Shown: positions 2,177 to 17,803 of the stretch, in pieces
How positions within the stretch are numbered: position 1 is the stretch's first letter
Layout of the letters: the number at the start of each line of letters is the position of its first letter
Assembly: GCA_039715015.1 (NCBI GenBank)
Contig: JBDLIE010000042.1
Coordinates: forward strand, 1 to 22,260
Length of the DNA stretch: 22,260 bases
Source of the DNA: Thermodesulfobacteriota bacterium
Lineage (GTDB): Bacteria; Desulfobacterota; Desulfobulbia; Desulfobulbales; SURF-16
Direction of reading: 5' to 3'
Position numbers and translations under genes: made by a program
The notes under the pieces: generated by a model
What the model was told of the DNA's origin: nothing
What the model saw: only the letters and a program-made list of their open reading frames with translations
Database searches by the model: none

Positions 2177-3073
2177 CTAACGGAAAATCTGCACCCTGTT
2201 GTTGTTTCTGTCGGCCACAAAGGCAAGGCCGTTGCCGTTGAGGCAGATGCCCACCGGGTAGTTGAGAAGGCCCTCAGCCCGGCCCTTGCCGGCCTTTTGG
2301 CCGCGGAAGGAGCCATCTACACCGACAAGAATGATTTTGCCGCCATTCTGGTCGGTGACATAGAGATTGCCGCCATTGTCCGTGGTGATGTAGGTTGGGA
2401 AATTCATCCGGTCCTTCAGGCTTTTGGAAAGAGGGCTGAAGTTCTGGGCATCCGGGCCTGCTGAATGGATGCGGGCATGGATACTGTCAACGGTATAGAT
2501 CGTGCCGCTGCTGGCAACCACGAAATCGGCAAAGGAGCCAAACTCCTTGGGCAGATCAATCTGGCGGAGAAACTCCCCTGCGGCGCTGAACACCAGGAGA
2601 CGGTTGCCATGGATATCGAGGATATATACCTTATCGTCCCGATCTATCCTGAAGCTTCGCGGCACAATTTCTTCTTGATCAGGGACGCTTTTTAGCTCAA
2701 AATTCCCCAGAAATTGGCCGTCAGGGCCGACCCGGACAATACGCCGGTTTTTGCTGCTTAAGGCCCAGATCTCACCCTTAGAGGTAATTTGGACACGAAT
2801 GGGGCTCCTTAACTGCGAAAAATGGACCTGCGAGATGAATTTTACCTCGTTGTCCTGCAGGCCATACTGGACAAGACGGTTGTTGCCTGTGTCGGCAATG
2901 ACGATACTGTCAGCCCTACAGGCCACATCCTCCGGGTGGAGGAGCCCTTTGCCGTCGCTATCGCTATAAATGGATACCAGCGGCTGGAATATGAGTGCCT
3001 GCTCGCTGACTGCCTTTTCGGCCGAGCAGAGGACTATTGCCAGAATAAGAATATGTGTCAAAACTGTCCGCAT
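2177..3073 (-). CDS. Secreted NHL-repeat (6-bladed beta-propeller) protein, last gene of the osc-like cluster
   Basis: NHL motifs (IADTGNNRL, YPVGI...FVADRNNNRVQIF) and a signal peptide. Start moved from 3133 to ATG 3073 because GGAGGT lies 6 nt upstream and it follows the cytochrome stop at 3078. Confidence 0.85.
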   Translation of the reverse strand: MRTVLTHILILAIVLCSAEKAVSEQALIFQPLVSIYSDSDGKGLLHPEDVACRADSIVIADTGNNRLVQYGLQDNEVKFISQVHFSQLRSPIRVQITSKGEIWALSSKNRRIVRVGPDGQFLGNFELKSVPDQEEIVPRSFRIDRDDKVYILDIHGNRLLVFSAAGEFLRQIDLPKEFGSFADFVVASSGTIYTVDSIHARIHSAGPDAQNFSPLSKSLKDRMNFPTYITTDNGGNLYVTDQNGGKIILVGVDGSFRGQKAGKGRAEGLLNYPVGICLNGNGLAFVADRNNNRVQIFR

Positions 3074-3077
3074 GCGC

Positions 3078-4355
3078 TTACCTCCTGAATGCACTGTGGC
3101 AGGTAGTGCACATCTCTGTCTGCGACGGAGCATGCATCATTTTTCCATAGGGCGTTCCATGGGAACGGTGGCAACTCAGACAGTCCACCGCGAGGTTGCC
3201 GTTGCGCGGATCCTTGTGGTCGTCACCGATGGGATGGGTGGAATGCTTCTGCCAATCATGGCAGCTGGCGCATACCTCAATAACCGAGGGGTCATTAAGG
3301 AGCAGCACCTGATTTGCCGCATGGGGTGAATGGCAGGAGGTGCACATTCCCTCGCTTACCGGAGAATGTTTGGTCTCAACCGTCTGCAACCATTGCACTG
3401 TGTCGGCATGGCACTGGCTGCAGACCTCGGTCATCGGCTTTTTCAGCAGGCCGTCCTGGGCCGAGGCATGGGGCGTATGACAGTTCAGGCAGCCGACCCC
3501 GTCCAGCATCGGCCAATGCACCCGGCTCCGGGCCAGATTTTCATTGATCATATTGCTATGGCAGCCCAAACAGAGTTTATAGCCCTCAGCCTTGGTCTTG
3601 AACGGTTCGCTGGCCGAGGAGTCGTCATGGCATCGTTTACACATCTTCTTGCCAAAGGGCACATGGACCTGGTCGTAGAGGAGGCCCTTTTTGCTTGAGC
3701 CGTGGGGGTCATGGCAGGAGGTGCAGCGCGCTCCTTCCACCTGAAAGCCGCCATGCTGTTTTTTAAAGACCAGCTTGCCGCTGTCGTGACACTTCAGGCA
3801 GAGGCCGGGAACATTCTTTTTAAGCAGGGTAGGGCCGCCAGTCGAGGCGTGGGGATCATGACAGCTGACACAGCCCTTTCCCACGGGCATGTGTTTGTAT
3901 TTTGCCGCAGCCACCTTGCTGCCCAGCTCCTTGTGGCACTCAAAACATAAGGTCTTGCCGCTCTTGTGCAGGTTGAACTTGTACTTGGCCGCATGTGGAT
4001 CATGGCACCTCACGCAGGTGCCTTCTCTGGCAACTTTATGGGTGCTCACGGCTTTCTCCGGCAAGACCTTGGTATGGCAGCTGACACAGATCTGCGCCGC
4101 ATCGGCGTCGAGAAATTTACCGTGTCTGGAGGCATGCGGATTATGGCAGCCCGTGCAATCCCAGTTTTTTAACGGCGTGTGGATGAAGGGCTTCTTGAGC
4201 ATCTCTTCAAACCTGTCATGACAGTTCAGGCAGTTTTTCCCTTTGGCCCCTTTTTTCAGATTGAACTTGTTGCCGGCAGCATGGGCGGCAGACAACAGGC
4301 CAAAACAGATGAGAAAGGCCAGGAAGGGGATGATGAAATCAGATCGTAGGCGCAT
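3078..4355 (-). CDS. Periplasmic 16-heme c-type cytochrome (paired-CxxCH repeat family)
   Basis: 16 CxxCH motifs counted by hand, CxxCHxPH repeats, Sec signal ending AHA, SD AAAGGA. Confidence 0.95.
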   Translation of the reverse strand: MRLRSDFIIPFLAFLICFGLLSAAHAAGNKFNLKKGAKGKNCLNCHDRFEEMLKKPFIHTPLKNWDCTGCHNPHASRHGKFLDADAAQICVSCHTKVLPEKAVSTHKVAREGTCVRCHDPHAAKYKFNLHKSGKTLCFECHKELGSKVAAAKYKHMPVGKGCVSCHDPHASTGGPTLLKKNVPGLCLKCHDSGKLVFKKQHGGFQVEGARCTSCHDPHGSSKKGLLYDQVHVPFGKKMCKRCHDDSSASEPFKTKAEGYKLCLGCHSNMINENLARSRVHWPMLDGVGCLNCHTPHASAQDGLLKKPMTEVCSQCHADTVQWLQTVETKHSPVSEGMCTSCHSPHAANQVLLLNDPSVIEVCASCHDWQKHSTHPIGDDHKDPRNGNLAVDCLSCHRSHGTPYGKMMHAPSQTEMCTTCHSAFRR

Positions 4356-4367
4356 GATTCGTCCTTT

Positions 4368-6350
4368 TTAGTTTTTCTGTACGATATGACACCCCTCGCA
4401 ATCTCTCTCTGCGAAAGGAGGGTGAACATTTTCTTTAAAAAATTTCGGGTCCTTGGAGGCATGCGGATTATGACAGGCTGCGCAGTTGATCACCGCCGCC
4501 TCAATATTGGCGTGCGCCCCGGCAAAGCCTTTGTCCATTAAATCATGGCACTCGCCGCACAGGCCTGGTACCGGCATACTGAGCAGGGTCTTGGCCGCTG
4601 ACGAGTGGGGGAGATGGCAGCTGGCACAGTCGCTCTTGGCCGGGGAATGAACCTGCTCAACATCCATCTTGTCCTTCAACTCCTTGTGGCAGGCCAGACA
4701 GAGGTCCGGGCTCTCCGCTTTCAGGAGCTTGTCAAGCTTGGCCTGGTGGGGGTTATGGCAGGAGGAGCACTGATCTGAAAGCACCGGTGCATGCCTGCTC
4801 TTGTCTTGTTCCACGCTCTCCATGAGGTCCCCATGGCACATGGCGCAGAGGCTGCCCTGTTTGGCGCCGGTCATTCCTGTGAAGTTGCTGCCATGGGGAT
4901 TGTGGCAGGTCAGGCATTCCCCATCACTGAAGGGCACATGGGCGTTGTCTTCGCCCATCTTTTTAATAAGAGCGCCATGGCAGCCAACGCAGAGTCTTGC
5001 CCCGCTTTTCTTGAGGAGCTTCTCTTTTTGAGCGCCGTGCGGATTATGGCAGGCCTGACATTGGCCGTTGCTCACCGGGCTGTGGGTGTGGCTTTTGCTG
5101 AATTCCTGGCGTTTTTCCATATGGCAGGTGTAGCAGACCACATCCATCCTCTCGTTGAACATCTTGGCAAAGTTGGAGCCGTGGGGGTTATGACAGGTTG
5201 AACACGTTTCTTCCAGAAAGGGATAATGCTCAACCTTGGCCTTTTCCGCCTCCTTTGTTTTCCCATGGCACTGAAAACAGAGGTCGCGGTCCTGGGCCAG
5301 GAGAAGTTTCTTCTCCTTTGCTGCATGGGGTCTATGGCAGGCCAGGCAGCCCCTTTCATCGTTCATGGGAGCGTGGGCCACACTGACATGCCCCTGTTTG
5401 TCGATATGACATTGGAAGCAGACCTTATTGCCGGCCTGGCTGAGGAGGACCTTGTTTTCTGAGGCATGGGGGGTATGGCAGGAGAGGCAGGCACCTGCCT
5501 TGAAAGGCTCATGCTCCACCGTGCCCCCCTCCTTCATGGTGTCGGCATCATGGCATTGGCCGCACAACTCATCCTCGGCCATGGCCACCTTGAAAGGCTG
5601 CTCTGAGTCGGCATCCCCATGGCAGGAGTCGCACTCTCCTTCACTAACCGGAGAGTGGACGCTGGCCTTCAGGAGCTTGTCCTGGCTCGAGGAGTGGGGA
5701 TTATGACAGCGAACACAGCTTTGCCTTTGCACCGGATAATTGCCATGCGCCTCTTTGAAGGCTGAATCTTCCGCCCCATGACAGGAAAGGCAAAGCGCCA
5801 TTTCCTGCTCAAGGAGAAGATTTTTCTCATTGGAGCCGTGGGCCGAATGGCAAACCTGGCAGCCTTCACTTTTTAAGGGCTCATGGACAAAATCTTTTTC
5901 AAATCTCTCCTGGCTATGGCACTGGAAGCAGAGCTCGCTTGCCTCCTTGGCCAGGAGAAATTTGGCCTGGCTGGCATGCGGGTTGTGACAGGTCGCACAG
6001 CTTCCTTTCTTTAAGATCGTGTGCACATAGTCCTTGTCCATGCCGATCTTCTTTTTGCTGTGGCATTCATAGCAGACCTGATTTCCCTGCTTTTTCAGGA
6101 TAAGCTTTGGCACCACCCCATGCTTGAGATGGCAATCCTGGCATTTTTCCTTTTTGACCACCGGGTGGACATTTTTCATGGCAAGATATTTGTCGGCAAA
6201 CTTCGTGTGACAATCCAGGCAATCCTTTTTGGCAAAGCCCATCCGGCCGATTGCTGCGGCCGGTTGCACGTCAAAGATGAGTCCGCCGCAGCAGAGAACC
6301 GTAAACAGTGAGACAACCATTCTTATTGCGTTTGTGTGTACCATTCGCAT
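4368..6350 (-). CDS. Periplasmic 26-heme c-type cytochrome (paired-CxxCH repeat family)
   Basis: 26 CxxCH motifs counted by hand in HxP..CxxCHxPHxS..LL..CxxCH modules, with an N-terminal hydrophobic signal. Start uncertain: ATG 6350 preferred over the ORF-track start 6401. Confidence 0.93.
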   Translation of the reverse strand: MRMVHTNAIRMVVSLFTVLCCGGLIFDVQPAAAIGRMGFAKKDCLDCHTKFADKYLAMKNVHPVVKKEKCQDCHLKHGVVPKLILKKQGNQVCYECHSKKKIGMDKDYVHTILKKGSCATCHNPHASQAKFLLAKEASELCFQCHSQERFEKDFVHEPLKSEGCQVCHSAHGSNEKNLLLEQEMALCLSCHGAEDSAFKEAHGNYPVQRQSCVRCHNPHSSSQDKLLKASVHSPVSEGECDSCHGDADSEQPFKVAMAEDELCGQCHDADTMKEGGTVEHEPFKAGACLSCHTPHASENKVLLSQAGNKVCFQCHIDKQGHVSVAHAPMNDERGCLACHRPHAAKEKKLLLAQDRDLCFQCHGKTKEAEKAKVEHYPFLEETCSTCHNPHGSNFAKMFNERMDVVCYTCHMEKRQEFSKSHTHSPVSNGQCQACHNPHGAQKEKLLKKSGARLCVGCHGALIKKMGEDNAHVPFSDGECLTCHNPHGSNFTGMTGAKQGSLCAMCHGDLMESVEQDKSRHAPVLSDQCSSCHNPHQAKLDKLLKAESPDLCLACHKELKDKMDVEQVHSPAKSDCASCHLPHSSAAKTLLSMPVPGLCGECHDLMDKGFAGAHANIEAAVINCAACHNPHASKDPKFFKENVHPPFAERDCEGCHIVQKN

Positions 6351-6387
6351 CGTTAACCCCAAGGTCCAGTTGTGGATGGTGAATCGG

Positions 6388-8067
6388 TTATTGTACGGCA
6401 CTCATGTCAATGAGCTGGTCTACATAGCTCTTTACCGGATAAAACTCTCGCAGCTTATCGGTCATTTCATCAAAGGCCTGCCGGAGTTTAATCTTGAACA
6501 CCTTTTCCTTTATCGTCTCGTGTACCTCGGCAAGCTCCTGAGGCATTGGTTCCACAACGTCCTCAACCAGGATGCTGTAGAAATAACCATTGTCATCTGC
6601 ATAGGTTGTCGTATCGCCCTTGCGGACATCAGTGAGCTGCTTTTGTAAATTCCCAGGCAGGGTGGTCAGCATCAACAAGCTGCCGTCAAAGTGCAGCAGC
6701 CCTTCGCTCTTTGCTTCAACCTGACCTTGGGCATGGGCGGTGAGCCAGCTTAAATCTGTGCCGCTCCGCAGCTTTGCCAGGGCCTTTTCGGCATTTTCTT
6801 TTTTGCTGAATACCAGGCTCTTGAGGCGAACCATGGGCGGGCTGGAGAAATCCTGAAGATGCTCTTGATAATATTGCTCAATGTCTTTTTCCCCCATCTG
6901 TAAATTGGGGATGATGACCTTGGTCATCACGGCGCCAAAGAGCATGGAGCTGCGGAAGTCGTCGACAATAGCTTGAAAAGACTTGTCCTTGTCGATTCCC
7001 TGGGCAAAGGCCTCCTTGGCAATGACCCTGCGGGTCAGGATCTTGTCGAGCACGCCTTTTTTCTCCTTGTTGAGTTTGCCGGTGCCGAACATCTTTTCGA
7101 TGCCATGGAAGAATTTTTTCTTAATCTCTGTGGCAAGCTCGCCGACAGTGACCGGCTCTTCCCCCTCTATGGAAGCCACAACCCTTTTGTCCTCCAGTAG
7201 GGTGGCAAAGCCCGGACCTTTGGCCTCTAGATCGAGGTCCTTCAAAAAATCTTCGTCAATTTTTGTATATTTTTCCTGGAGCTTAATGATGTATTCGGCC
7301 TGGGCTCCGCTCTTTTGGGTGTTGAGGACCCTTTGCTCGACCTGTTCCTTTACAGCAGGGTCTTCAGGATAGAGGATATCATTAAGTTTAATGAGCACGA
7401 AGCCGTCCTGGATCGGGATTATGGGGCTGAGCGAGTCCTTTTTCATCCCGGCCAGGGCAGCGCCGATCTGAGGCAGCATCTCCTTCTCGCTATGCTTTTT
7501 GGTTTCCAAAGTGCCCTCGGCAATGCCGTCAGCAATGGCTTTGGCGGCCACCACGCTATAATCGCTGCCTGCCCCGATCTCGGCGACGATCTTTTGCGCT
7601 TCTTCTGCCGTGCTGATCTTCAGCGATTGCAGAGCATACTTTTTGACCTCCTGTTTGTAGAGGGGGTCAACCATGGCGGCATCAGGTGTAAGGTCCATGG
7701 TCGCTTTATCGAGGAGGAATTTGCGCATGGACTGCTTTGAAAAAGCAGCTACCTGGTCCTGGATATCGGGTAGATCGCCCAGGCCGATATTTTCTGCCTC
7801 CAGCAGGACCAAACGGATATCGACCAGGCGTTTCAAGGGCGCCTTATAATTGATTTCCCCAGCCTTTTGGGCTGAAGCCCCCTGACCATGGCCATGCATG
7901 GAAGAAAGGGCCTTGTTGAACTCATCCAGATAGATGGGGTCTCCGTTGAGTGTGGCAATGACCTCCTTGCCGTTAACCATAGGCAATCCGCCGCCTGTCT
8001 TGGCAGCGCATGCATTGCCTGTCCCAAACATCATCAGTATCCCGATCAACGCAATAATTTTTTTCAT
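6388..8067 (-). CDS. oscH: SurA/PpiC-type peptidyl-prolyl isomerase chaperone with two repeated modules (OscH-like)
   Basis: SurA-N-like (VIATLNGDPI; VVASIEGEEPVT) and parvulin-like (SPIIPIQDGFVLIKL) segments occur twice. Signal peptide MKKIIALIG from ATG 8067 with GGAG upstream. Symbol assigned from synteny with omcS as recalled for the osc cluster. Confidence 0.8.
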   Translation of the reverse strand: MKKIIALIGILMMFGTGNACAAKTGGGLPMVNGKEVIATLNGDPIYLDEFNKALSSMHGHGQGASAQKAGEINYKAPLKRLVDIRLVLLEAENIGLGDLPDIQDQVAAFSKQSMRKFLLDKATMDLTPDAAMVDPLYKQEVKKYALQSLKISTAEEAQKIVAEIGAGSDYSVVAAKAIADGIAEGTLETKKHSEKEMLPQIGAALAGMKKDSLSPIIPIQDGFVLIKLNDILYPEDPAVKEQVEQRVLNTQKSGAQAEYIIKLQEKYTKIDEDFLKDLDLEAKGPGFATLLEDKRVVASIEGEEPVTVGELATEIKKKFFHGIEKMFGTGKLNKEKKGVLDKILTRRVIAKEAFAQGIDKDKSFQAIVDDFRSSMLFGAVMTKVIIPNLQMGEKDIEQYYQEHLQDFSSPPMVRLKSLVFSKKENAEKALAKLRSGTDLSWLTAHAQGQVEAKSEGLLHFDGSLLMLTTLPGNLQKQLTDVRKGDTTTYADDNGYFYSILVEDVVEPMPQELAEVHETIKEKVFKIKLRQAFDEMTDKLREFYPVKSYVDQLIDMSAVQ

Positions 8068-8219
8068 AGGAATCTTCTCCGGAAATTTTCCCCTGTTATT
8101 GATAAAATCGTACGTAACAAGCTTGGCTTGAGCTATCGAGCGCTCCATCCATTTCAACGGCAGTTACCTGTAACCCATATCAATCTCCTCTTTTTTTGCA
8201 CCCCATACACTTCCAGCTG

Positions 8220-9584
8220 TTATTGGCTAAGAAGCCTGCTGATGGCCCTGGTCATCTGGGCTGCCATGGCGCTAGCCGTTGTAAACCGGCCCCAGTCGAA
8301 GAAAAAAACCCCATCGGAACCAGCATTGTAACTTTTTGACGTCCAGACCAGCCGGCGGTTCTGGTTGTCGAACAGCTCTGCTGAGAAATCCACCACCGGC
8401 CCTCCCCAGTGCCCCTTGGTATCCTGGTAGTCAAAGACCTTGCCTGATAAAACAAAATCCGCATCAAAACTACTGACCATGGCTTCAGCCTGGGGAATGG
8501 AAATGCCGTCATCCATAATAATCCTGAAACGGAGCAGCTCGTCATGGACAACACCTGGCTCAATCACGGTGAATCTTTCGCTTTCCTGCAACGCCTTCAG
8601 GAAATGCAAGGCCATAATCTCCCCGCCATACTTGCGGTCGCTGACGTTGTAAAAAGGGGGCACCGCAACCTTGGCTTTCCCCTCCCAGGCCCTATCCAGG
8701 GCGGCGCGGGCCATCTTTGGCTGGAACTTCCCCGCCAAGGCCGCTGCCTTTTTGTTGCTGGCCAGGCTCTGGGCCAGAGATCCGACCAGTATTTCCAGGG
8801 CCTCGCTCCGCATCGCTTCCGGCTCCTCAATGAGCCCCAGGCCGAGAAGCCCAGCTGAATCATCACCGGCCAGGCCGACGTTGTCCACCCAGAGGATTTC
8901 CGGGGACCGGGCCAGGGAAACCAAGCGGCAGTGCAGGGCGATCTTAAGGGGAGGCTGCTCATCATAAAGCTCCAGGGTGGTGATGAGCAGCGCTTCAGCC
9001 CCGGTTGCCTCCTTGAGCTTCTCGGCAAGGCTGCCATTAATGCCGCCCACCTTGCGCATGCGGTGTTTTGCCATAAAGCCCTGTAAGTCAGGATCGCTGA
9101 CCACATCAAACCCCTTACCCTGTAACAGGGAAAGAATCTCTGTGCGGATCATCGCCAGTGGTGCCGCGGCTCTGCTCAAATTCTGAAGGGGCAGCACTGC
9201 AACCAGGGGCCGGCTTATCTCAAATTCGGCTGACCAAGGGCTGTGTGCCGCCCTGTCAAGCTGATCACGAACAACCACCTTGACCCGGTAGGTCCCGGCC
9301 CGGGCAGGCCACCATTCCCCGGACGGCGATAATCCTTGCTGCTTCAAGACCTGACCGTTGCTGTCTGCGTACAGGAACTCATAGGAGAGGGGCGCCATCC
9401 CTCCTGTGGTTTCGGCGCTCCAGACAACGGGAACCTTTAGACTGCTCTGGGGCGAATTTTTATCTGCCCTCAGAGTCTGCACCGTTAATGGAGGCGTCTC
9501 CTGCAGTGCGGCACAGCCCGTCAGGAGGAGGGCCGCAAGGAGCGCTGTTCCCCTAGCCCTTGAAGAGCATTTTAATAAGTTCAC
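8220..9584 (-). CDS. oscG: Lipoprotein with N-terminal Ig-like domain and two CsgG/GNA1162-like domains (OscG-like)
   Basis: Lipobox LTGC. Two repeats begin VAVLPLQNLS and VAVPPFYNVS. GTG start overlaps the end of the upstream gene. Symbol from synteny. Confidence 0.75.
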   Translation of the reverse strand: MNLLKCSSRARGTALLAALLLTGCAALQETPPLTVQTLRADKNSPQSSLKVPVVWSAETTGGMAPLSYEFLYADSNGQVLKQQGLSPSGEWWPARAGTYRVKVVVRDQLDRAAHSPWSAEFEISRPLVAVLPLQNLSRAAAPLAMIRTEILSLLQGKGFDVVSDPDLQGFMAKHRMRKVGGINGSLAEKLKEATGAEALLITTLELYDEQPPLKIALHCRLVSLARSPEILWVDNVGLAGDDSAGLLGLGLIEEPEAMRSEALEILVGSLAQSLASNKKAAALAGKFQPKMARAALDRAWEGKAKVAVPPFYNVSDRKYGGEIMALHFLKALQESERFTVIEPGVVHDELLRFRIIMDDGISIPQAEAMVSSFDADFVLSGKVFDYQDTKGHWGGPVVDFSAELFDNQNRRLVWTSKSYNAGSDGVFFFDWGRFTTASAMAAQMTRAISRLLSQ

Positions 9585-10122
9585 TCACCGCCTCTTCAGT
9601 AATTGTGTTCATGGGCTGGCCGCCGCCGCCCAGAAGGCGGTCCTTGGTGGAGATGCCGCCCTTGGTGCTGGCCCCCACCCAGACGACCTTGCCGGTCTCT
9701 ACCTCAATGAGTTGCAGGCTCAAAGAAACAACATTTGCCGCCGCAGTACCGGAGCGCACCTCGCCATACTCCTTTAAAACCCCGGTGATTACGGCATCAG
9801 TGCCCAGCACAGCACCGAGCTTCTGGATTTCTTTCACCGATGGCGCACTGCCGTCGGAAAGCATGCTCCTGGAAATGCCTCTGGCCACCTCGCCCGCCGG
9901 CAGCACATAAACACCGCCGGTGGAAAGAAGCATGTTCATGAAGACATCCCGCACCCGATCTTCCGCATTTTTATGGTTGGTAAGATTGGCAAAGGGCAGG
10001 ACAGCCACGGTCTGGATGATACTGAAATCCATGTTCTGATCGTGGTAGGTCCGTGGCGACAGGCTGCAGCCTGAAACAAGGGCCAGAATAACAGAGAGAA
10101 CAATCAGTTTAGCGAAACGCAT
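9553..10122 (-). CDS. oscF: CsgG/GNA1162-like lipoprotein (OscF-like)
   Basis: Lipobox VSGC. VAVLPFANLT...LGTDAVITG...LIEVETGKVVW pattern. SD GGGGAG. Symbol from synteny. Confidence 0.78.
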   Translation of the reverse strand: MRFAKLIVLSVILALVSGCSLSPRTYHDQNMDFSIIQTVAVLPFANLTNHKNAEDRVRDVFMNMLLSTGGVYVLPAGEVARGISRSMLSDGSAPSVKEIQKLGAVLGTDAVITGVLKEYGEVRSGTAAANVVSLSLQLIEVETGKVVWVGASTKGGISTKDRLLGGGGQPMNTITEEAVSELIKMLFKG

Positions 10123-10202
10123 GTCTATTCTCCCTGATGGATATTGGTATCATCAGGCCCTGGGCTCGGCCCTGCCTTGCCCATTGCCTGACAAGAAAAG
10201 CA

Positions 10203-12452
10203 TCAGTACCTGATTTTGATATTTGCATTTAATGACTCCATATCAATGGTCTGGAAAACCGAATCGCTCTCGGTCTTGTAAAAGGATACTGTCAGGTCGA
10301 TGCGCGGGGTAATCTCCCAACGGATGCTTGGCCTGAAGGTCGTCAGCTTGGACAGGTCCTGGGTACGCAGCTCTTCGCTGTAATCAATACGCAGCTGCAG
10401 GGTGCCGTATGGAAAGGGTGACCAGTTCAGGGAGTAATTCTTCAGGGTATCGTTTCTGTTTTCCTGCTCGACCCGGCCATAGGAGGCGACAATGTAAACG
10501 GTCTGGAAAGGCCGCCAGGTGATCCCTACATCTGTTCTGTTTGTTCTTTTTGTCGAATCCGCTAAGCCACCGCCGGAAGAATCGCTGTTGGTTTCCATAT
10601 AATTGGCGGTGATGGTCATGGACCGGTGCGGCACGACATCAGTGCCGACATTCAAGGTCAGGGTCTCCTGGTCTTGGCCGTCGGCATTATTCTGCCAGCT
10701 CACGCCGCCATCTACAAAGACGTCAATGCCTTTGTAGATGGCGGCCCGATTCTGGAGAAAGAGGGAATTTCTGGTGGTGTCATCGTCGCCAACCTTTTCC
10801 TGCCGGCCATTGAAGACCAGGGTGTTGTTGAGGGTTTTTAAGGGATCGGCCCGTAATGAGGCGCTATAGCCATGGGCATAGCCGGAGGCGTGGATCTCCT
10901 TGATCTCCTCGCGCAGGACCCGGACATTGCCGCGCAATTTCTCGTTAAAGCGGTGGCTGGCCGACAGGATATTACTCAGGGTGCTTCTTTCTCCCTCCCC
11001 CGGGGTCGTTTTAGTCATAAAAAACGAGATGTTGTGGAACAGGTCGAACTGCTCCATCAGTTTGGTGCGGGCATCCAAATTGAGCATATGGGTGGTGGAG
11101 GATCTTTTTGTTTCCTTGTCCGGTAATGGTTCACGGATAAAGGCCTGCAGCTCGGTGACATTGATATCTGGATATAGAATTGATTCCGCTGGCGGCGACC
11201 CACTGCTCAAGGGGCGGACCACCACCTTGATAAACTGGGTCGTCACTTTAGTGAAATCAATCTGGAAGTAATATTGCAGGCCATTATTCGTTTGGGCGGC
11301 AAGGAAGGGTGCTTGGGTGATTGTCTGCTCCAACTGCCAAGAATTGTTATCGTCACTGCTGGTATAAATCTCCCACTCAAACCAGTCGGCAACCGTTGGA
11401 TCGAGAGAGAGATCCTGGTCAACCCAGACCCGCAGGGTATTCACCTCGGTAGGACTGACAAACTCAAGTCCCAGGTGCTTCCGTTTCGTTCCTGAGGTGG
11501 TGCCGAGATTGATAGCGGTGATATCAGTAAACTGGCCATCAATCAGTTCGGGAATAATGGAGGGAGGAGGCAGAGGCAATAAAATAAATGGCGCAGTTTG
11601 CGTGTCGTTTTCAAGAAAAAGACCGCTTGTAATTCCTAAAATCTGCTCAACAAGCTCTCCTGTGCCATGGGCAATAATCTTTTGATGGCGGTCCGTTATA
11701 TTATAGGTGACGCCGAAATTGGTGCGTCTGTTGAAAAAGGTGTCGGCATAGCCTATGCGGCCGTGGTGGGTGGTGGTCTTTAGTTCAAAATTGTCAATGT
11801 GGTCGGTGTACTCCTGAAGAATAGGATTATAGCGGATGTCAAACTTGTCAGTGCGATAGCGGCTGTTCAAGGAGGATATGGTGGTGGTGGAGTCCTGGAA
11901 TTGGCGGTCCTTGTCGTAGAGATCATTCTTGTCCACCCGCAGGTCAAAGGTGGGCAAGCCATCCGGGCGCCAGTCCAGGACGGCGCTGTACAGCTCATTG
12001 ATGTTGCTGATCGTCCTGGTGCCGCTGCTCTTTTGCTCGTCCTCTCGCTTGCTGTAGCTGACCCCGGCCCTGTAAAGCCTGTTGTCCAAGGTCAGATCGA
12101 CATAGGGCCTGGTATTGTTCCAGGTCAAGGTGCGCTCGGTGCCATTGAGGTCGGAGTCTATGGCGTTCTTCTCGAAAATGCCGCCGGCTGTGAGTCGCAG
12201 GTTGGGGAAAAAGCTCTTCTTCAGGTCTACATTATACTTCTGGCCCCAGGAGGAGGAGTCGGTCTGCGTTTTTTGGCCTGATCTTTTGTCCATAGTTTCA
12301 GTGTCCACGCTCGTGTAATCAAACTCCAGAAGGGCGTTGATGCTGTCGGCCAGGGCCACTTGAGCCAGGACAACAGCTTCAAAAAAATAAAGGCAAAACG
12401 CCCCTGCGCCAAGCAAGACGAGCCTTTTGAATACGCCTGTCTTGCCGCGCAA
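10203..12452 (-). CDS. oscE: Large outer-membrane beta-barrel protein with inserted soluble domain (OscE-like)
   Basis: 749 aa with signal peptide, alternating amphipathic strands in the N- and C-terminal parts, and a C-terminal aromatic beta-signal (ANIKIRY). TTG start 4 nt after the upstream stop. Symbol from synteny. Confidence 0.78.
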   Translation of the reverse strand: MRGKTGVFKRLVLLGAGAFCLYFFEAVVLAQVALADSINALLEFDYTSVDTETMDKRSGQKTQTDSSSWGQKYNVDLKKSFFPNLRLTAGGIFEKNAIDSDLNGTERTLTWNNTRPYVDLTLDNRLYRAGVSYSKREDEQKSSGTRTISNINELYSAVLDWRPDGLPTFDLRVDKNDLYDKDRQFQDSTTTISSLNSRYRTDKFDIRYNPILQEYTDHIDNFELKTTTHHGRIGYADTFFNRRTNFGVTYNITDRHQKIIAHGTGELVEQILGITSGLFLENDTQTAPFILLPLPPPSIIPELIDGQFTDITAINLGTTSGTKRKHLGLEFVSPTEVNTLRVWVDQDLSLDPTVADWFEWEIYTSSDDNNSWQLEQTITQAPFLAAQTNNGLQYYFQIDFTKVTTQFIKVVVRPLSSGSPPAESILYPDINVTELQAFIREPLPDKETKRSSTTHMLNLDARTKLMEQFDLFHNISFFMTKTTPGEGERSTLSNILSASHRFNEKLRGNVRVLREEIKEIHASGYAHGYSASLRADPLKTLNNTLVFNGRQEKVGDDDTTRNSLFLQNRAAIYKGIDVFVDGGVSWQNNADGQDQETLTLNVGTDVVPHRSMTITANYMETNSDSSGGGLADSTKRTNRTDVGITWRPFQTVYIVASYGRVEQENRNDTLKNYSLNWSPFPYGTLQLRIDYSEELRTQDLSKLTTFRPSIRWEITPRIDLTVSFYKTESDSVFQTIDMESLNANIKIRY

Positions 12453-12456
12453 ATCG

Positions 12457-13878
12457 TTACCTGCCGCCCATCAGGGTTATAGCGCCCGGCCCCTTGCCCA
12501 CCTCGATGAGGGCAACCCTTTTTCTGCTGAGCAGGTCGTAAACGGCAACCCTTCCTGTGTCAGGGAGGGCGAGGTAGAGGTTGCCTTCCTCATCATCAAT
12601 GGCCAGATCGCCCACCGCCTCGCCCACCCGGATGGCATCCACCGGAAAGAGGGTGAAGGGGTCAAATATTTCAACCGCCCCCTCTGATTTCTTGGCGAAG
12701 TAGAGCATTTCCGTGCGTGGGTCCATGACCACGTCACTCAGGCCGCTGCCAACATAGACCCGCTCCAGAACAGCAAGGGAGCGGGTGTCGATCACTTCAA
12801 GATGGGGGGACATGCTATGGACGATAAAGAGCCGGTCGCCGCTGGGGCTGAAGGCGCCGGCAATGGGCTCCGGCCCCACCGCCAGGGTGGCGGCCACAAG
12901 ATGGTTGGCAAGATCAATAACCGAAATCGTACCGGACCAGAGGTTAAGCACATAGCCCCTTCTGCCGTTCTGGTCCACCAGCACCGCACAGGGCCCGTCC
13001 CCCACTGTAATTCGGGCTCTTTCCATCAGGGAGGCGGGGTCAGTAAGTGTGATGGTGTCGGAGCCGAAGTTTGAGGTGACCAGCAGAGTGCCATCAGGGC
13101 TAAGCGTGCTTTCACAGGGTTCATCGCTGATGCCCAGGCGGGCCTTGTCGATAATGGCCTGGCCGCTTACATCAATAAGTGCCAGGGAATCCTCGCCACT
13201 AAGCGGGACGTAAGCCCGGTGGCGGACGCGGTCCACGGCGATGTCTTTGGGCCCGGCTCCGGTGGCAATCACCCCAACGACTTGAAGGTGGCCCTTGTCA
13301 AAGATGGTGATGCTGTTTGATTTCTCATTGGCAACATATCCCAAGACCTTGGGGGCCAGACGTTCGGGCAGGAAGATGGAAAAAGCAGGGCTAAAAACGA
13401 CGCCGCCTGCGTTCAGTGAACGGCCGTAATTAAATTTCAGGAGGAGAAGCTGGGCCTTGTTCTTGCTAATCTGGAAGGGAAACTCGACCAGATAGGGCCC
13501 GTGGCCCACTGCCAGGGAGATCTCGCCCTCTTCTGATTTGCGGTAGGCGTTGCCAACAAGAAAGGAAAGGCCCTGGTACTCCCCGGGGGCAAGGGGGCCC
13601 ACGGCAAGGAGCCTTTGTCGCTGGATCCCGCTCTCCTTAAAGTCGGAAAAGGCAAGGGGGAGAGGGACCAGGCTGCCGTCAGCCTTGACAGCGGCAAGCG
13701 CCTGCAGGTTGAAACGGAGCCGTTGTGCTTCCTGCGGGAAAGGCTGGACATAGAGATGCACCTCCCCATCGCCGTCCATAATCGAGCGGGAAGTGTGCAG
13801 CATGGGCTGGCAGCCGGCAAGAAGCGCTACGGCCAGGCCTGCGAAGAGGGTCAATATAAAGACTTTCCGCACCATCAC
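12457..13878 (-). CDS. oscD: Lipoprotein with C-terminal YVTN-type beta-propeller (OscD-like)
   Basis: Lipobox LAGC. YVANEKSNSITIFD, YVLNLWSGTISVID and VGxGP repeats. First gene after omcS. Symbol from synteny. Confidence 0.82.
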   Translation of the reverse strand: MMVRKVFILTLFAGLAVALLAGCQPMLHTSRSIMDGDGEVHLYVQPFPQEAQRLRFNLQALAAVKADGSLVPLPLAFSDFKESGIQRQRLLAVGPLAPGEYQGLSFLVGNAYRKSEEGEISLAVGHGPYLVEFPFQISKNKAQLLLLKFNYGRSLNAGGVVFSPAFSIFLPERLAPKVLGYVANEKSNSITIFDKGHLQVVGVIATGAGPKDIAVDRVRHRAYVPLSGEDSLALIDVSGQAIIDKARLGISDEPCESTLSPDGTLLVTSNFGSDTITLTDPASLMERARITVGDGPCAVLVDQNGRRGYVLNLWSGTISVIDLANHLVAATLAVGPEPIAGAFSPSGDRLFIVHSMSPHLEVIDTRSLAVLERVYVGSGLSDVVMDPRTEMLYFAKKSEGAVEIFDPFTLFPVDAIRVGEAVGDLAIDDEEGNLYLALPDTGRVAVYDLLSRKRVALIEVGKGPGAITLMGGR

Positions 13879-14118: not shown

Positions 14119-15387
14119 TTAATCTTTAGCATGACATTTGTTACAAAGCCCCCTCTGATAGGTGGCAAACTCGGTTGCCGGCCTGTCATAATAGGCGTCT
14201 TCCAGCTCTGCCGAGGTCCGGCCCCGGGCATAGTTCACCTCAGCAGGAGTACCGGCATCTGGATAATGGCTGTCGTAGACGATGAAGTCCGATTCATTAT
14301 TCCAGCGCAGCATGCTGTTAAAGCCGGAGGCATGGGCCCGATGGCAGGAGAGACACATGACCTCATCACCAGTGCCAGGGCCGGCCAGCACTGTATCGTC
14401 ATTCTTGGCATTTGTGGCCAGGCTGGTGAAATCTCCAGCGGCCTGGGCAAAGGGTGCCAGGGAGAGATATGCTGTTGTGGCGATACCGGTCATATCACCG
14501 GAGGCCACATAGGCGTTGTACAGGGCGGCAATGGTGGCGCCCAGGGGTTGGTCAACAGGATGGACATAGGCGCCTGAACTATGCATGTCGCCATGACAGG
14601 TGCCGCACCACTGGCCCCACTGGTTGTTGCCGCCAGTGGTCTGCACCCCGTAGGCGACGCGGGTCTGGGTCACTGCCTCAGAGCGGTTGTAGGTGGCAGG
14701 GGCCACGGCCGCGGGGACGCCGGTGTAGGTAACACCGAGGGAGGCCGTGCTCGCATAGCCGCTACCGGCCAACAGGCGGTAGACGCCAACCGCCTCGCCA
14801 AGGCCGGGAACTTTACTGGTATCGTAAGAGCCGGAGCCGATAATAGGGGCGCCGGTGGTGGCCACCGTGCCGTCAGACATTCTTCTATACTTGCCATGGG
14901 GATCATGGCAGCTGTTACACTGCAGGCTGGAAGCAGGGAAGGTGCCACCCGGTGCTATGGTATTGGTGGCATCCGCCACATAGCCCTGGTCAGCGGCAAC
15001 GATATTATGACCGTGCCGATCACCGTCTTCACTTCCAGGAGCGCCATAAGAAAATGTCCAGGCATAGTCCTTCTTCAGCCAGCCGAAGTCGCCGCCCGGG
15101 CTTCTCTGGATCGGCGCGATGCCGGGGCCCATATCCGTATCAGCGGTACTGATGTGATAGCTGCGCGGCGCAGTGTCGCCGGGACTCTCATGACAGGCCA
15201 GACAGGTGGAGCTCTGATCGCTTCCCTTTAACAGAAAGCCGCTTGCCATATTGGGGGAATGCATGCTGTGACAGCCGCCACACTCTGCAACGCCACCACT
15301 ATGGAATGCCAGGGCGGAACCAGCCACACCGGCGGTTAAAAGACCGGCACTGGCTAATACCAGATTCATTTTGTAGAACTTCTTCAT
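14119..15387 (-). CDS. omcS: OmcS-family hexaheme c-type cytochrome (nanowire subunit)
   Basis: Six CxxCH motifs. Hallmark OmcS segments: mature N-terminus FHSGGVAECxGCHxMH, PGGDFGWxKK, GHNIVA, CxSCHDPHGKYRR, CLSCHRAHASGF and C-terminal LCNKCHAKD. ATG 15387 with SD GGAGGG (15401-15396). Confidence 0.95.
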   Translation of the reverse strand: MKKFYKMNLVLASAGLLTAGVAGSALAFHSGGVAECGGCHSMHSPNMASGFLLKGSDQSSTCLACHESPGDTAPRSYHISTADTDMGPGIAPIQRSPGGDFGWLKKDYAWTFSYGAPGSEDGDRHGHNIVAADQGYVADATNTIAPGGTFPASSLQCNSCHDPHGKYRRMSDGTVATTGAPIIGSGSYDTSKVPGLGEAVGVYRLLAGSGYASTASLGVTYTGVPAAVAPATYNRSEAVTQTRVAYGVQTTGGNNQWGQWCGTCHGDMHSSGAYVHPVDQPLGATIAALYNAYVASGDMTGIATTAYLSLAPFAQAAGDFTSLATNAKNDDTVLAGPGTGDEVMCLSCHRAHASGFNSMLRWNNESDFIVYDSHYPDAGTPAEVNYARGRTSAELEDAYYDRPATEFATYQRGLCNKCHAKD

Positions 15388-15413
15388 TGTAATCACCCTC
15401 CAAAAATATTGGT

Positions 15414-15493
15414 CTCCGGTAGTCCAGCCGTCCCTTCTCTAGGACCTGTAGACTTTGTGTCCCCACCTTACGATGGGTTTACCTTTTTCGAAG
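15414..15493 (-). promoter_or_regulatory. GEMM-I (c-di-GMP-I / cGAMP class) riboswitch aptamer in the omcS leader
   Basis: Minus strand reads CUUCG-AAAAA-GGU-AAA-CCCAUC-GUAA-GGUGGG-GAC-AC-AAAG-UCUACAG-GUCCU-AGAGAA-GGGAC-GGC-UGGACU-AC-CGGAG. This gives P1 CUUCG/CGGAG, P2 with a GNRA loop, the conserved AAA and CAAAG junctions, P3 and terminal UACCG. Confidence 0.9.
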
Positions 15494-15580
15494 GATGGTT
15501 TGCCGGCGGACCGGCGCTTGTTTTTCCTCTCGTACAATGTGTCTTTGTCTTCTTCTCTGGTACTTCCCTCTGTACTTCAA

Positions 15581-16600
15581 TTAACCGCTATTCATTCCTC
15601 CTTTATTCTGCGACAGCTTTCCCAACGATTCACCATGTGCGGTTGAGTCGCCATAATCCAGTCTGAAAACGCTGACTCCTCTTCTGCGTCCTTGCGAAAC
15701 ATAGATTCTGTCTTTTTTGTCAATGGCAAGATCGCTTGGTACGATCATGTTTCCTGGTTTTGGCCCTCTATAGCCAAACTCTTTTATGAAGTTAAGGTCC
15801 TTATCAAAAACGATGATGGCGCATTTGAGTTTGTCAGCCACCAGATAATTGCCGTGGCTGTCGGCGACCATGCCGGCCAGGATATTGAACCGGCCTGGGG
15901 CGCCCCCTGACTTGCCAAACGACCTGATCATGCCGTCCATGGCCAGGATGTTGGCCTTGAACAGGACGGGGATGGTGAAGAGGATGTTGCCGCCTTTATC
16001 CAGGCTGAAGCCGGCAAACTCGATGCTTCCCCGCTTGTCCTCTTCAAGGCTGAGCACTTCAAAAAGATCAAAGCCCTTCACAAAGCTGCCGTCACCAGCA
16101 CAGATAACGATCTGCATCTGATTTTGACTGGCCAGATAGATTTGGCCGTCTTTGTATATGATACGGTTGGGTGTAAACTGAGAAAATTGGGCAGGAAGGC
16201 CCTTGATGCTAATCTCTTCAATGGGCTGTCCCCGGTAATCGCAGCGTAACACCACTGACCTGCCGGCCTTGTAGGTGAGAAGCAGGATGTCATCACCCTG
16301 ACCGGCATCCGCCCCAAGGACATGGCCAAGGTCCATGCCGTCGCCAAAGCGGTACACCTCCATGCCCGTATCATTGAAGATCACCACCTCGTTTTGATAG
16401 ATAACAAAGGTCTCATGGCGCTCTTCATCGATGGCGAGTGTCGGCCAGTTATAAGGAAGGAGGCCGGAAAAATCAGAAAGAGAGTAGAGGTAGCTCTCTT
16501 TGACTTGCTCTTCCCCGGCGACAGGACTTATGAAGCAGAGCAGGGCGGCCAGAGTCAGCAGAATAACAGCGCTGTATTTTTTGCCATTTAGTGTTGCCAT
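15581..16600 (-). CDS. Secreted NHL-repeat/beta-propeller protein, first gene of the omcS operon
   Basis: Signal peptide. NHL motifs FGKSGGAPGRFN, FGYRGPKPGNMIVPSDLAID and IYVSQ. Same position as the NHL gene recalled upstream of Geobacter omcS. Confidence 0.85.
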   Translation of the reverse strand: MATLNGKKYSAVILLTLAALLCFISPVAGEEQVKESYLYSLSDFSGLLPYNWPTLAIDEERHETFVIYQNEVVIFNDTGMEVYRFGDGMDLGHVLGADAGQGDDILLLTYKAGRSVVLRCDYRGQPIEEISIKGLPAQFSQFTPNRIIYKDGQIYLASQNQMQIVICAGDGSFVKGFDLFEVLSLEEDKRGSIEFAGFSLDKGGNILFTIPVLFKANILAMDGMIRSFGKSGGAPGRFNILAGMVADSHGNYLVADKLKCAIIVFDKDLNFIKEFGYRGPKPGNMIVPSDLAIDKKDRIYVSQGRRRGVSVFRLDYGDSTAHGESLGKLSQNKGGMNSG

Positions 16601-17113: not shown

Positions 17114-17803
17114 GTGGGAAAAAAAATCTTGATCATCGATGATGACCTCCTGGTCTTGTACGGCCTCCAGAAAGCCCTGCGCCGGGAAGCCGTGGATGTG
17201 GCAACCGCTTCATCGGCCGGGCTTGCCATGGACGAACTCAGCGTCTGCCCCTATGATCTCTGCCTGCTCGACATCCATCTCCCTGATTATAATGGCCTGG
17301 AGCTGATGAAAATCATCAAGCAGACCTGCCCGAAGACCAAGGTGATCGTCATGACCGCAAGCTACACAGGGGATGATGAGTTGAGCAGCAACATCAAACA
17401 GGCGGCTGAAAACGGGGCCTGCCATTTCCTAACCAAGCCTTTTGATCTGAACGAGGTTAAAGACATTATCAAAAAGGCGTTGTCTGAGAAGGATTTTCAT
17501 ACCGGCGTCCGCTTCACGGACAATGCCTTTGTCAAAAAAACCAGAAAATTTAGGCGGAGGTTGAACTCCCAGGAGATGGATATAGCCATGACCATCATCG
17601 GCGAAGGGGAAATCAAGCGGCGGCACGCCGAGGCGGAATCCGTAGATATTTCAGAGGGAGGAGTGGGGGTAGTAACCAGTTACCCCCTGCGGGTATCGCA
17701 AGTGCTCTGCCTCAAGTCAGCGGTGACGGATAAAACCGGGATTGTGGTCTGGAGCAGGATGGATGAGGACAACACCTGCCGGGCCGGGGTGCGCTTCGCC
17801 TGA
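17114..17803 (+). CDS. Response regulator receiver fused to a PilZ domain
   Basis: REC motifs DDD, LLD, MT and KPF. C-terminal RKFRR (RxxxR) and DISEGG (DxSxxG) c-di-GMP-binding motifs, ending VVW...RAGVRF. GTG start with AAGGTG SD. Confidence 0.88.
   Translation: MGKKILIIDDDLLVLYGLQKALRREAVDVATASSAGLAMDELSVCPYDLCLLDIHLPDYNGLELMKIIKQTCPKTKVIVMTASYTGDDELSSNIKQAAENGACHFLTKPFDLNEVKDIIKKALSEKDFHTGVRFTDNAFVKKTRKFRRRLNSQEMDIAMTIIGEGEIKRRHAEAESVDISEGGVGVVTSYPLRVSQVLCLKSAVTDKTGIVVWSRMDEDNTCRAGVRFA

Follow-up and report, generated by a model that had tools for sequence, protein, structure and literature searches.

The RNA encoded just upstream of omcS in this Desulfobulbales genome (positions 15414 to 15493 of the window, i.e., the whole 22,260-nt stretch of DNA that was analyzed) is, by its sequence, an ordinary canonical G/A/C-type GEMM-I aptamer, and its G20 is no exception but what is commonly found in a widespread family of omcS leaders. 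Its ligand is predicted to be c-di-GMP, which we regard as likely, and we predict with good confidence that this G20 aptamer binds c-di-GMP and thereby switches on the translation of omcS. All features of the window described below lie on the (−) strand unless the (+) strand is indicated.

The initial annotation had proposed an omcS riboswitch at this place, with the Rfam c-di-GMP-I covariance model as a check, and both Rfam matches obtained confirm it. Specifically, RF01051 matched positions 15415 to 15493 with 59.5 bits against a gathering score of 35 (none of 14 control genomes matched), and RF03167 matched positions 15414 to 15492 with 60.9 bits (E-value 2.3e-12; threshold 59). Although RF03167 gave the highest bit score for this RNA, its consensus has G at position 47 (which is presumably what "GGC" denotes in the variant's name) and the aptamer has A47, so that score reflects scaffold likeness only, and identity with the c-di-GMP-I-GGC variant was rejected. 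The aptamer consists of P1 (15493–15489 with 15418–15414), P2 with a GUAA (GYRA) loop (15477–15462), and a short P3 (15454–15421). In Vc2 numbering, the ligand-specificity base G20 (15483; A in the G. sulfurreducens-type leader) stands immediately 5′ of the G21-U22-AAA opener, with the G21-C46 pair at 15482/15457, the canonical stacking base A47 at 15456, and C92 at 15419, the predicted Watson-Crick partner of the ligand's second guanine (a role described in the excerpted text of PMC6140456). Both the G at the specificity position and the retained C92 had been read correctly at the outset. The helices are 93% paired across 28 aligned homologues (slid controls: 35 to 51%), with two-sided changes in 9 of 23 pairs and a covariation score reached by none of 500 shuffles, a shuffle without control for relatedness. 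A score above the gathering threshold, the G20/A47/C92 pocket, and covariation across P1-P2-P3 place the RNA in RF01051, while GEMM-Ib, the cGAMP riboswitches, does not fit a G instead of A at 15483 in a host whose 25 GGDEF regions all carry Asp and lack the Ser348 of Hypr enzymes.

The gene controlled by this leader encodes a 422-aa OmcS-family hexaheme cytochrome (14119–15387) that starts at ATG 15387, in preference to a GTG at 15396, which was rejected. It shares 52.6% identity with OmcS of G084, a genome whose OmcS matches the G. sulfurreducens sequence of PDB 6ef8; homology to 6ef8 spans the full length (E-value 8.9e-123) with six CxxCH motifs, and by analogy the homolog presumably forms filaments as in Geobacter. 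The 3′ end of the aptamer lies 12 nt upstream of the Shine-Dalgarno (SD) motif GGAGG (15397–15401) and 27 nt upstream of the ATG. Nine genes flanking omcS correspond, in the same order, to the G084 omcS cluster (31 to 51% identity). Upstream of the leader is a β-propeller gene (15581–16600) with 42.6% identity to its G084 counterpart, which likewise lies upstream of omcS, and eight accessory genes in G084 order (2177–13878; 31 to 51% identity) encode a β-propeller, a large putative β-barrel, two small envelope proteins (one lipoprotein-like), a PPIase, two multiheme cytochromes, and an NHL protein; we take this to be the "osc cluster". Among named relatives, Desulfurivibrionaceae MAGs are the closest, with 83 to 84% protein identity.

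Directly behind the cluster lies a gene for a GAF-GGDEF cyclase with the canonical Asp348 (289–1956), with conserved synteny in 2 of the 5 relatives tested. A divergent REC-PilZ protein with RxxxR and DxSxxG motifs (17114–17803, (+) strand; motif definitions from the excerpted text of PMC7288161) adjoins the omcS cluster in all 5 relatives tested. With its c-di-GMP motifs intact, this protein could form a local c-di-GMP circuit with the cyclase. A GC-rich hairpin just upstream of the leader (15501–15516) is terminator-like on the (+) strand only, and no promoter above chance was located.

The cyclase inventory of the host genome (99.99% complete, 100 contigs) points to the same messenger as the aptamer pocket. 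The 27 matches to PF00990 correspond to 25 regions, every one of which has Asp, not the Hypr Ser, at position 348 (23 by alignment and 2 frameshifted ones by translation), and since the host genome thus has no Hypr-type GGDEF, the ligand is likely to be c-di-GMP. Searches of this genome with three Hypr-type queries gave no match above 42% identity, and the in-frame Hypr pattern was absent from all 6 same-genus genomes tested. No SMODS cyclase was found in the host genome with a search whose control matched in 3 of 14; for the DncV-family search of the host genome, the control gave no match. Frameshifted GGDEF genes occur at four places (C10:9850–10400, C52:200–600, C60:1550–2150, and C98:2550–3000). 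RF01051 matched the host genome four times, with G20 and a GYRA loop in all four aptamers. The other three (C63:13797–13871, C40:6197–6273, and C54:15077–15151) have, by eye, terminator-like hairpin-plus-U-run tails and precede genes that we labeled, also by eye, as a small helical protein, a DEAD-box helicase-like protein, and a radical-SAM-like protein.

How c-di-GMP would act on omcS is suggested by the strand that overlaps the 5′ side of P1. In the ligand-free RNA, this strand (15497–15485) would pair with the ribosome-binding site; bound c-di-GMP would lock P1, which is completed 8 nt ahead of the competing strand, and thereby free the ribosome-binding site, so that OmcS would be made at high c-di-GMP. 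Folding and conservation mark 15485 to 15497 as an anti-SD strand with 15406–15394 as its predicted ligand-free partner, and the minimum-energy fold buries the SD in exactly this pairing. The two-dimensional model puts the OFF fold at −38.7 kcal/mol and the ON fold at −27.6 kcal/mol, an advantage of 11 kcal/mol for the OFF fold that the ligand, tertiary contacts, or co-transcriptional folding and kinetics must offset. When P1 alone was forced, most SD bases were still paired, in an alternative local hairpin, which counts against the switch model. Pairing of the SD with the 5′ strand has a probability above 0.5 in 55 of 61 leaders, a set partly selected on the anti-SD motif; 3 of the 6 leaders that failed were mis-picked SDs, and 1 further leader was without an SD call. 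Among loci found via the protein, where the anti-SD motif was not required, aptamers close to omcS have it in 39 of 40 cases, compared with 1 of 6 for the others. Covariation in the anti-SD helix was not above that of shuffles, its paired fraction was reached by 102 of 500, and the complementarity owes partly to P1 resembling an SD. Two published results also run against the proposal, as far as their excerpted texts go: in G. sulfurreducens, omcS expression reportedly rises when c-di-GMP is low (PMC12285248), contrary to the ON reading, and changing the G20-equivalent base of the Cd1 switch is reported to have barely affected binding (PMC9262584), contrary to the base-20 reading.

The leader pattern was surveyed across 301 genomes each of Desulfobulbales, the Nitrospirota phylum, and Desulfuromonadia, the class of G084. 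In Desulfobulbales, 24 genomes carried 28 matches (25 G20 and 3 A20); in Nitrospirota, 15 genomes carried 18 matches (10 G20 and 8 A20), and an omcS-like gene lies downstream of 43 of these 46 matches combined, three of the 43 weakly. In Desulfuromonadia, 24 genomes carried 29 matches, and the omcS-linked remainder, after exclusion of 7 of the 29 that have no link to omcS (six on checking and one because it resembles its twin; one A match unchecked), comprises 15 A, 5 G, and 2 C. G20 in an omcS leader is no oddity in this survey: it is the majority state outside Desulfuromonadia (25 of 28 in Desulfobulbales) and also occurs inside that class, together with a Hypr-type enzyme. On a quick OmcS tree of 46 proteins (the 55 leader-bearing ones minus 9 that were short or distant), the G/A label changes 10 times, and well-supported branches force at least 8 of these changes; label shuffling gave a mean of 12.9 changes, with 24 of 500 shuffles as low as 10.

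Several individual leaders deserve mention. C20 occurs in two omcS leaders, in G073 (L123) and G173:C9 (L252), and A20 and G20 leaders occur together in the Nitrospirota genomes G165 (L206 and L211, 3.5 kb apart) and G577 (L209 and L212). In the host's own genus, G004 (84% complete) has two omcS-like paralogs with A20 leaders (G004:C64:42517–44534; L175 and L193); of its seven GEMM-I aptamers, one is unparsed and the four besides these two carry G20, and it has no Hypr match. The same leader type also stands before unrelated small tetraheme cytochromes, not omcS, in G237 (L169) and G308 (L170).

The base at position 20 was compared with the presence of Hypr-type cyclases, defined as an in-frame match, judged by length and reading frame, to a Ser/Thr348 pattern wide enough to admit GGEEF; a still looser Ser/Thr348 pattern returned only noise. 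Of the two Ser348 enzymes that G. sulfurreducens is reported to have (excerpted text of PMC8835794), the pattern recovers one, and because it misses the other, an absent match in other genomes is weak evidence. G929, G308, and G237 (no omcS downstream) and G073 (C20) were dropped from the count, in which G163 and G351 may be one genome. A Ser/Thr348 match was present in 20 of 21 genomes with any A20 omcS leader versus 17 of 44 G20-only genomes; conversely, A20 occurs in 1 of 28 genomes without a match versus 20 of 37 with one. The Fisher P value of 9e-6 for this association ignores kinship and was not counted as evidence. Broken down by clade, Ser/Thr348 matches accompany A20 and G20 in 12 of 12 and 5 of 5 Desulfuromonadia genomes, 7 of 7 and 7 of 9 Nitrospirota genomes, 0 of 1 and 1 of 22 Desulfobulbales genomes, and 1 of 1 and 4 of 8 genomes of other clades, respectively. 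The link between position 20 and Hypr-type cyclases that the initial annotation had suggested looking for therefore lies between clades and is absent within them, and a strict rule of A20 with Hypr and G20 without it was rejected on the Desulfuromonadia and Nitrospirota counts. The association runs in one direction only: genomes lacking a candidate cGAMP source rarely have A20, and G20 persists whether or not such a source is present. With 17 of 44 G20-only genomes having a Ser/Thr348 cyclase, G20 is not confined to cGAMP-free cells.

The Nitrospirota matches are of one kind. An in-frame Ser348/GGEEF-type match, i.e., a candidate cyclase, is present in 14 of the 15 leader-bearing Nitrospirota genomes, and L152, L156, L157, L159, and L163 (in G176, G178, G165, and G170) are GAF-GGDEF-family proteins with Ser348, GGEEF, and a two-residue insertion between them. 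According to the excerpted text of PMC6456294, the Ser348/GGEEF combination has no activity, and GGDE[F/Y] is the only form of the motif in natural Ser/Thr348 enzymes. The sole Desulfobulbales Ser348 enzyme seen (G033:C10; L219) is a 521-aa ORF with a terminal GGDEF-type domain and an AGDEF motif that is unlike GacA in its front part; the omcS leader of the same genome is G20.

Taken together, these data allow a broader reading, which we put forward tentatively and at clearly less than even confidence: the omcS leader may be a single mobile switch acting at the level of translation, carried along with the nanowire cluster in several phyla, in which the exchange of one base changes the tuning, with G20 coupling the wires to c-di-GMP (attached state) and A20 adding cGAMP sensing and being kept almost only alongside a Ser/Thr348 cyclase. 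A competing explanation, which we consider somewhat unlikely, is that the omcS-leader scaffold is bispecific with either purine at position 20, so that the base tunes affinity, flips are near-neutral, nothing is rewired, and the ligand here is c-di-GMP by default. Near-neutral flips would suit a number of changes on the tree close to the shuffled mean, the absence of a within-clade link to Ser/Thr348 cyclases, the two A20 leaders of G004 without a Hypr match, and the two C20 leaders, and Geobacter omcST is indeed reported to be sensitive to both ligands (PMC6456294, excerpt). They are harder to reconcile with the near-restriction of A20 to genomes with a Ser/Thr348 match (1 of 28 versus 20 of 37), with the two Nitrospirota genomes that retain both an A20 copy and a G20 copy, and with wild-type Vc2, whose G20 strongly discriminates against cGAMP (PMC6140456, excerpt).

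Two further alternatives concern this leader itself. It is improbable, in our estimate, that the leader acts mainly through transcript stability or termination instead of translation initiation. The 2- to 3-fold lower omcST RNA reported for G. sulfurreducens without GacA (excerpted text of PMC6456294) and the lack of covariation support for the anti-SD helix would agree with such a mode, but no terminator (hairpin with U-run) was found between the aptamer and the omcS start codon, the aptamer-SD gap is only 12 nt, the anti-SD motif distinguishes omcS leaders from others, and the host's other three GEMM-I RNAs do have hairpin-plus-U-run tails (by eye). Less probable still is that the G20 aptamer senses 3′,3′-cGAMP in vivo, supplied by an enzyme that was missed. 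The uniform Asp348, the Hypr-type queries, and the 6 same-genus genomes all speak against this, even though the genome is split over 100 contigs, the DncV-family control was silent, and the scaffold is nearly identical to that of Geobacter.

If c-di-GMP does switch omcS on, Desulfobulbales without cGAMP have coupled the OmcS module to the biofilm signal, which predicts when the wires are made. If the leader is a mobile switch, the near-identical G/A pairs and the dual-copy genomes are repeated natural experiments in the origin of cGAMP specificity. In any case, the leader family offers closely matched G20 and A20 aptamers for testing GEMM-I versus GEMM-Ib specificity. The Dp17 biosensor may be of Desulfobulbales origin. 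In the open-licence literature, we found no publication on G20 omcS leaders outside Geobacter or on position-20 flips. The RNA class and the link between omcS and a riboswitch in Geobacter are already known, so these results extend known biology and do not describe a new system.

The closest known system is the G. sulfurreducens omcS-omcT leader (GEMM-Ib), which occupies the same site before omcS in the same gene cluster. The G. sulfurreducens-type leader of G084 matches the present one almost base for base, with near-identical P1, P2, GU/AC opener, and anti-SD motif, yet it has A20 where the present leader has G20, so the contrast drawn with Geobacter holds for the sequence. The hosts also differ, as the present one is without a GacA-type cyclase and has a single omcS copy, whereas the G. 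sulfurreducens cluster has three paralogs. The Geobacter-like architecture noted in the initial annotation holds insofar as the GUAA (GYRA) loop and short P3 are present, but the GYRA loop is not a cGAMP hallmark and was rejected as a marker, being found in 26 of 30 G20 and 10 of 15 A20 aptamers in addition to all four host G20 aptamers. Similarly, the suggestion that omcS is wired to a different messenger than in Geobacter is upheld in part: A20 in the G084 leader and the lack of a Hypr GGDEF here favor it, but the omcST switch, reported to be dual-sensitive and to have the smallest response among the riboswitch operons (PMC6456294, excerpt), blurs the distinction. The weak RNA-level response of omcST to GacA loss could also reflect translational control, beyond ligand promiscuity alone. 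In G. sulfurreducens, cGAMP and c-di-GMP are reported to promote electron transfer to different kinds of surface (same excerpt).

The second comparison is with Vc2 of Vibrio cholerae (RF01051 type), with which the present RNA shares G20, A47, C92, a 6-nt J1/2, and the three-stem fold. According to the excerpted text of PMC6140456, Vc2 binds c-di-GMP at picomolar levels and cGAMP only at 10 µM, its G20A mutant binds both ligands (53 and 120 nM), and bispecificity is frequent among natural A20 aptamers; A20 therefore tends to confer cGAMP binding in addition to that of c-di-GMP, not in its place. Unlike Vc2, the present RNA has a GUAA loop, a short P3, an omcS-specific anti-SD platform, and a nanowire cytochrome as its target.
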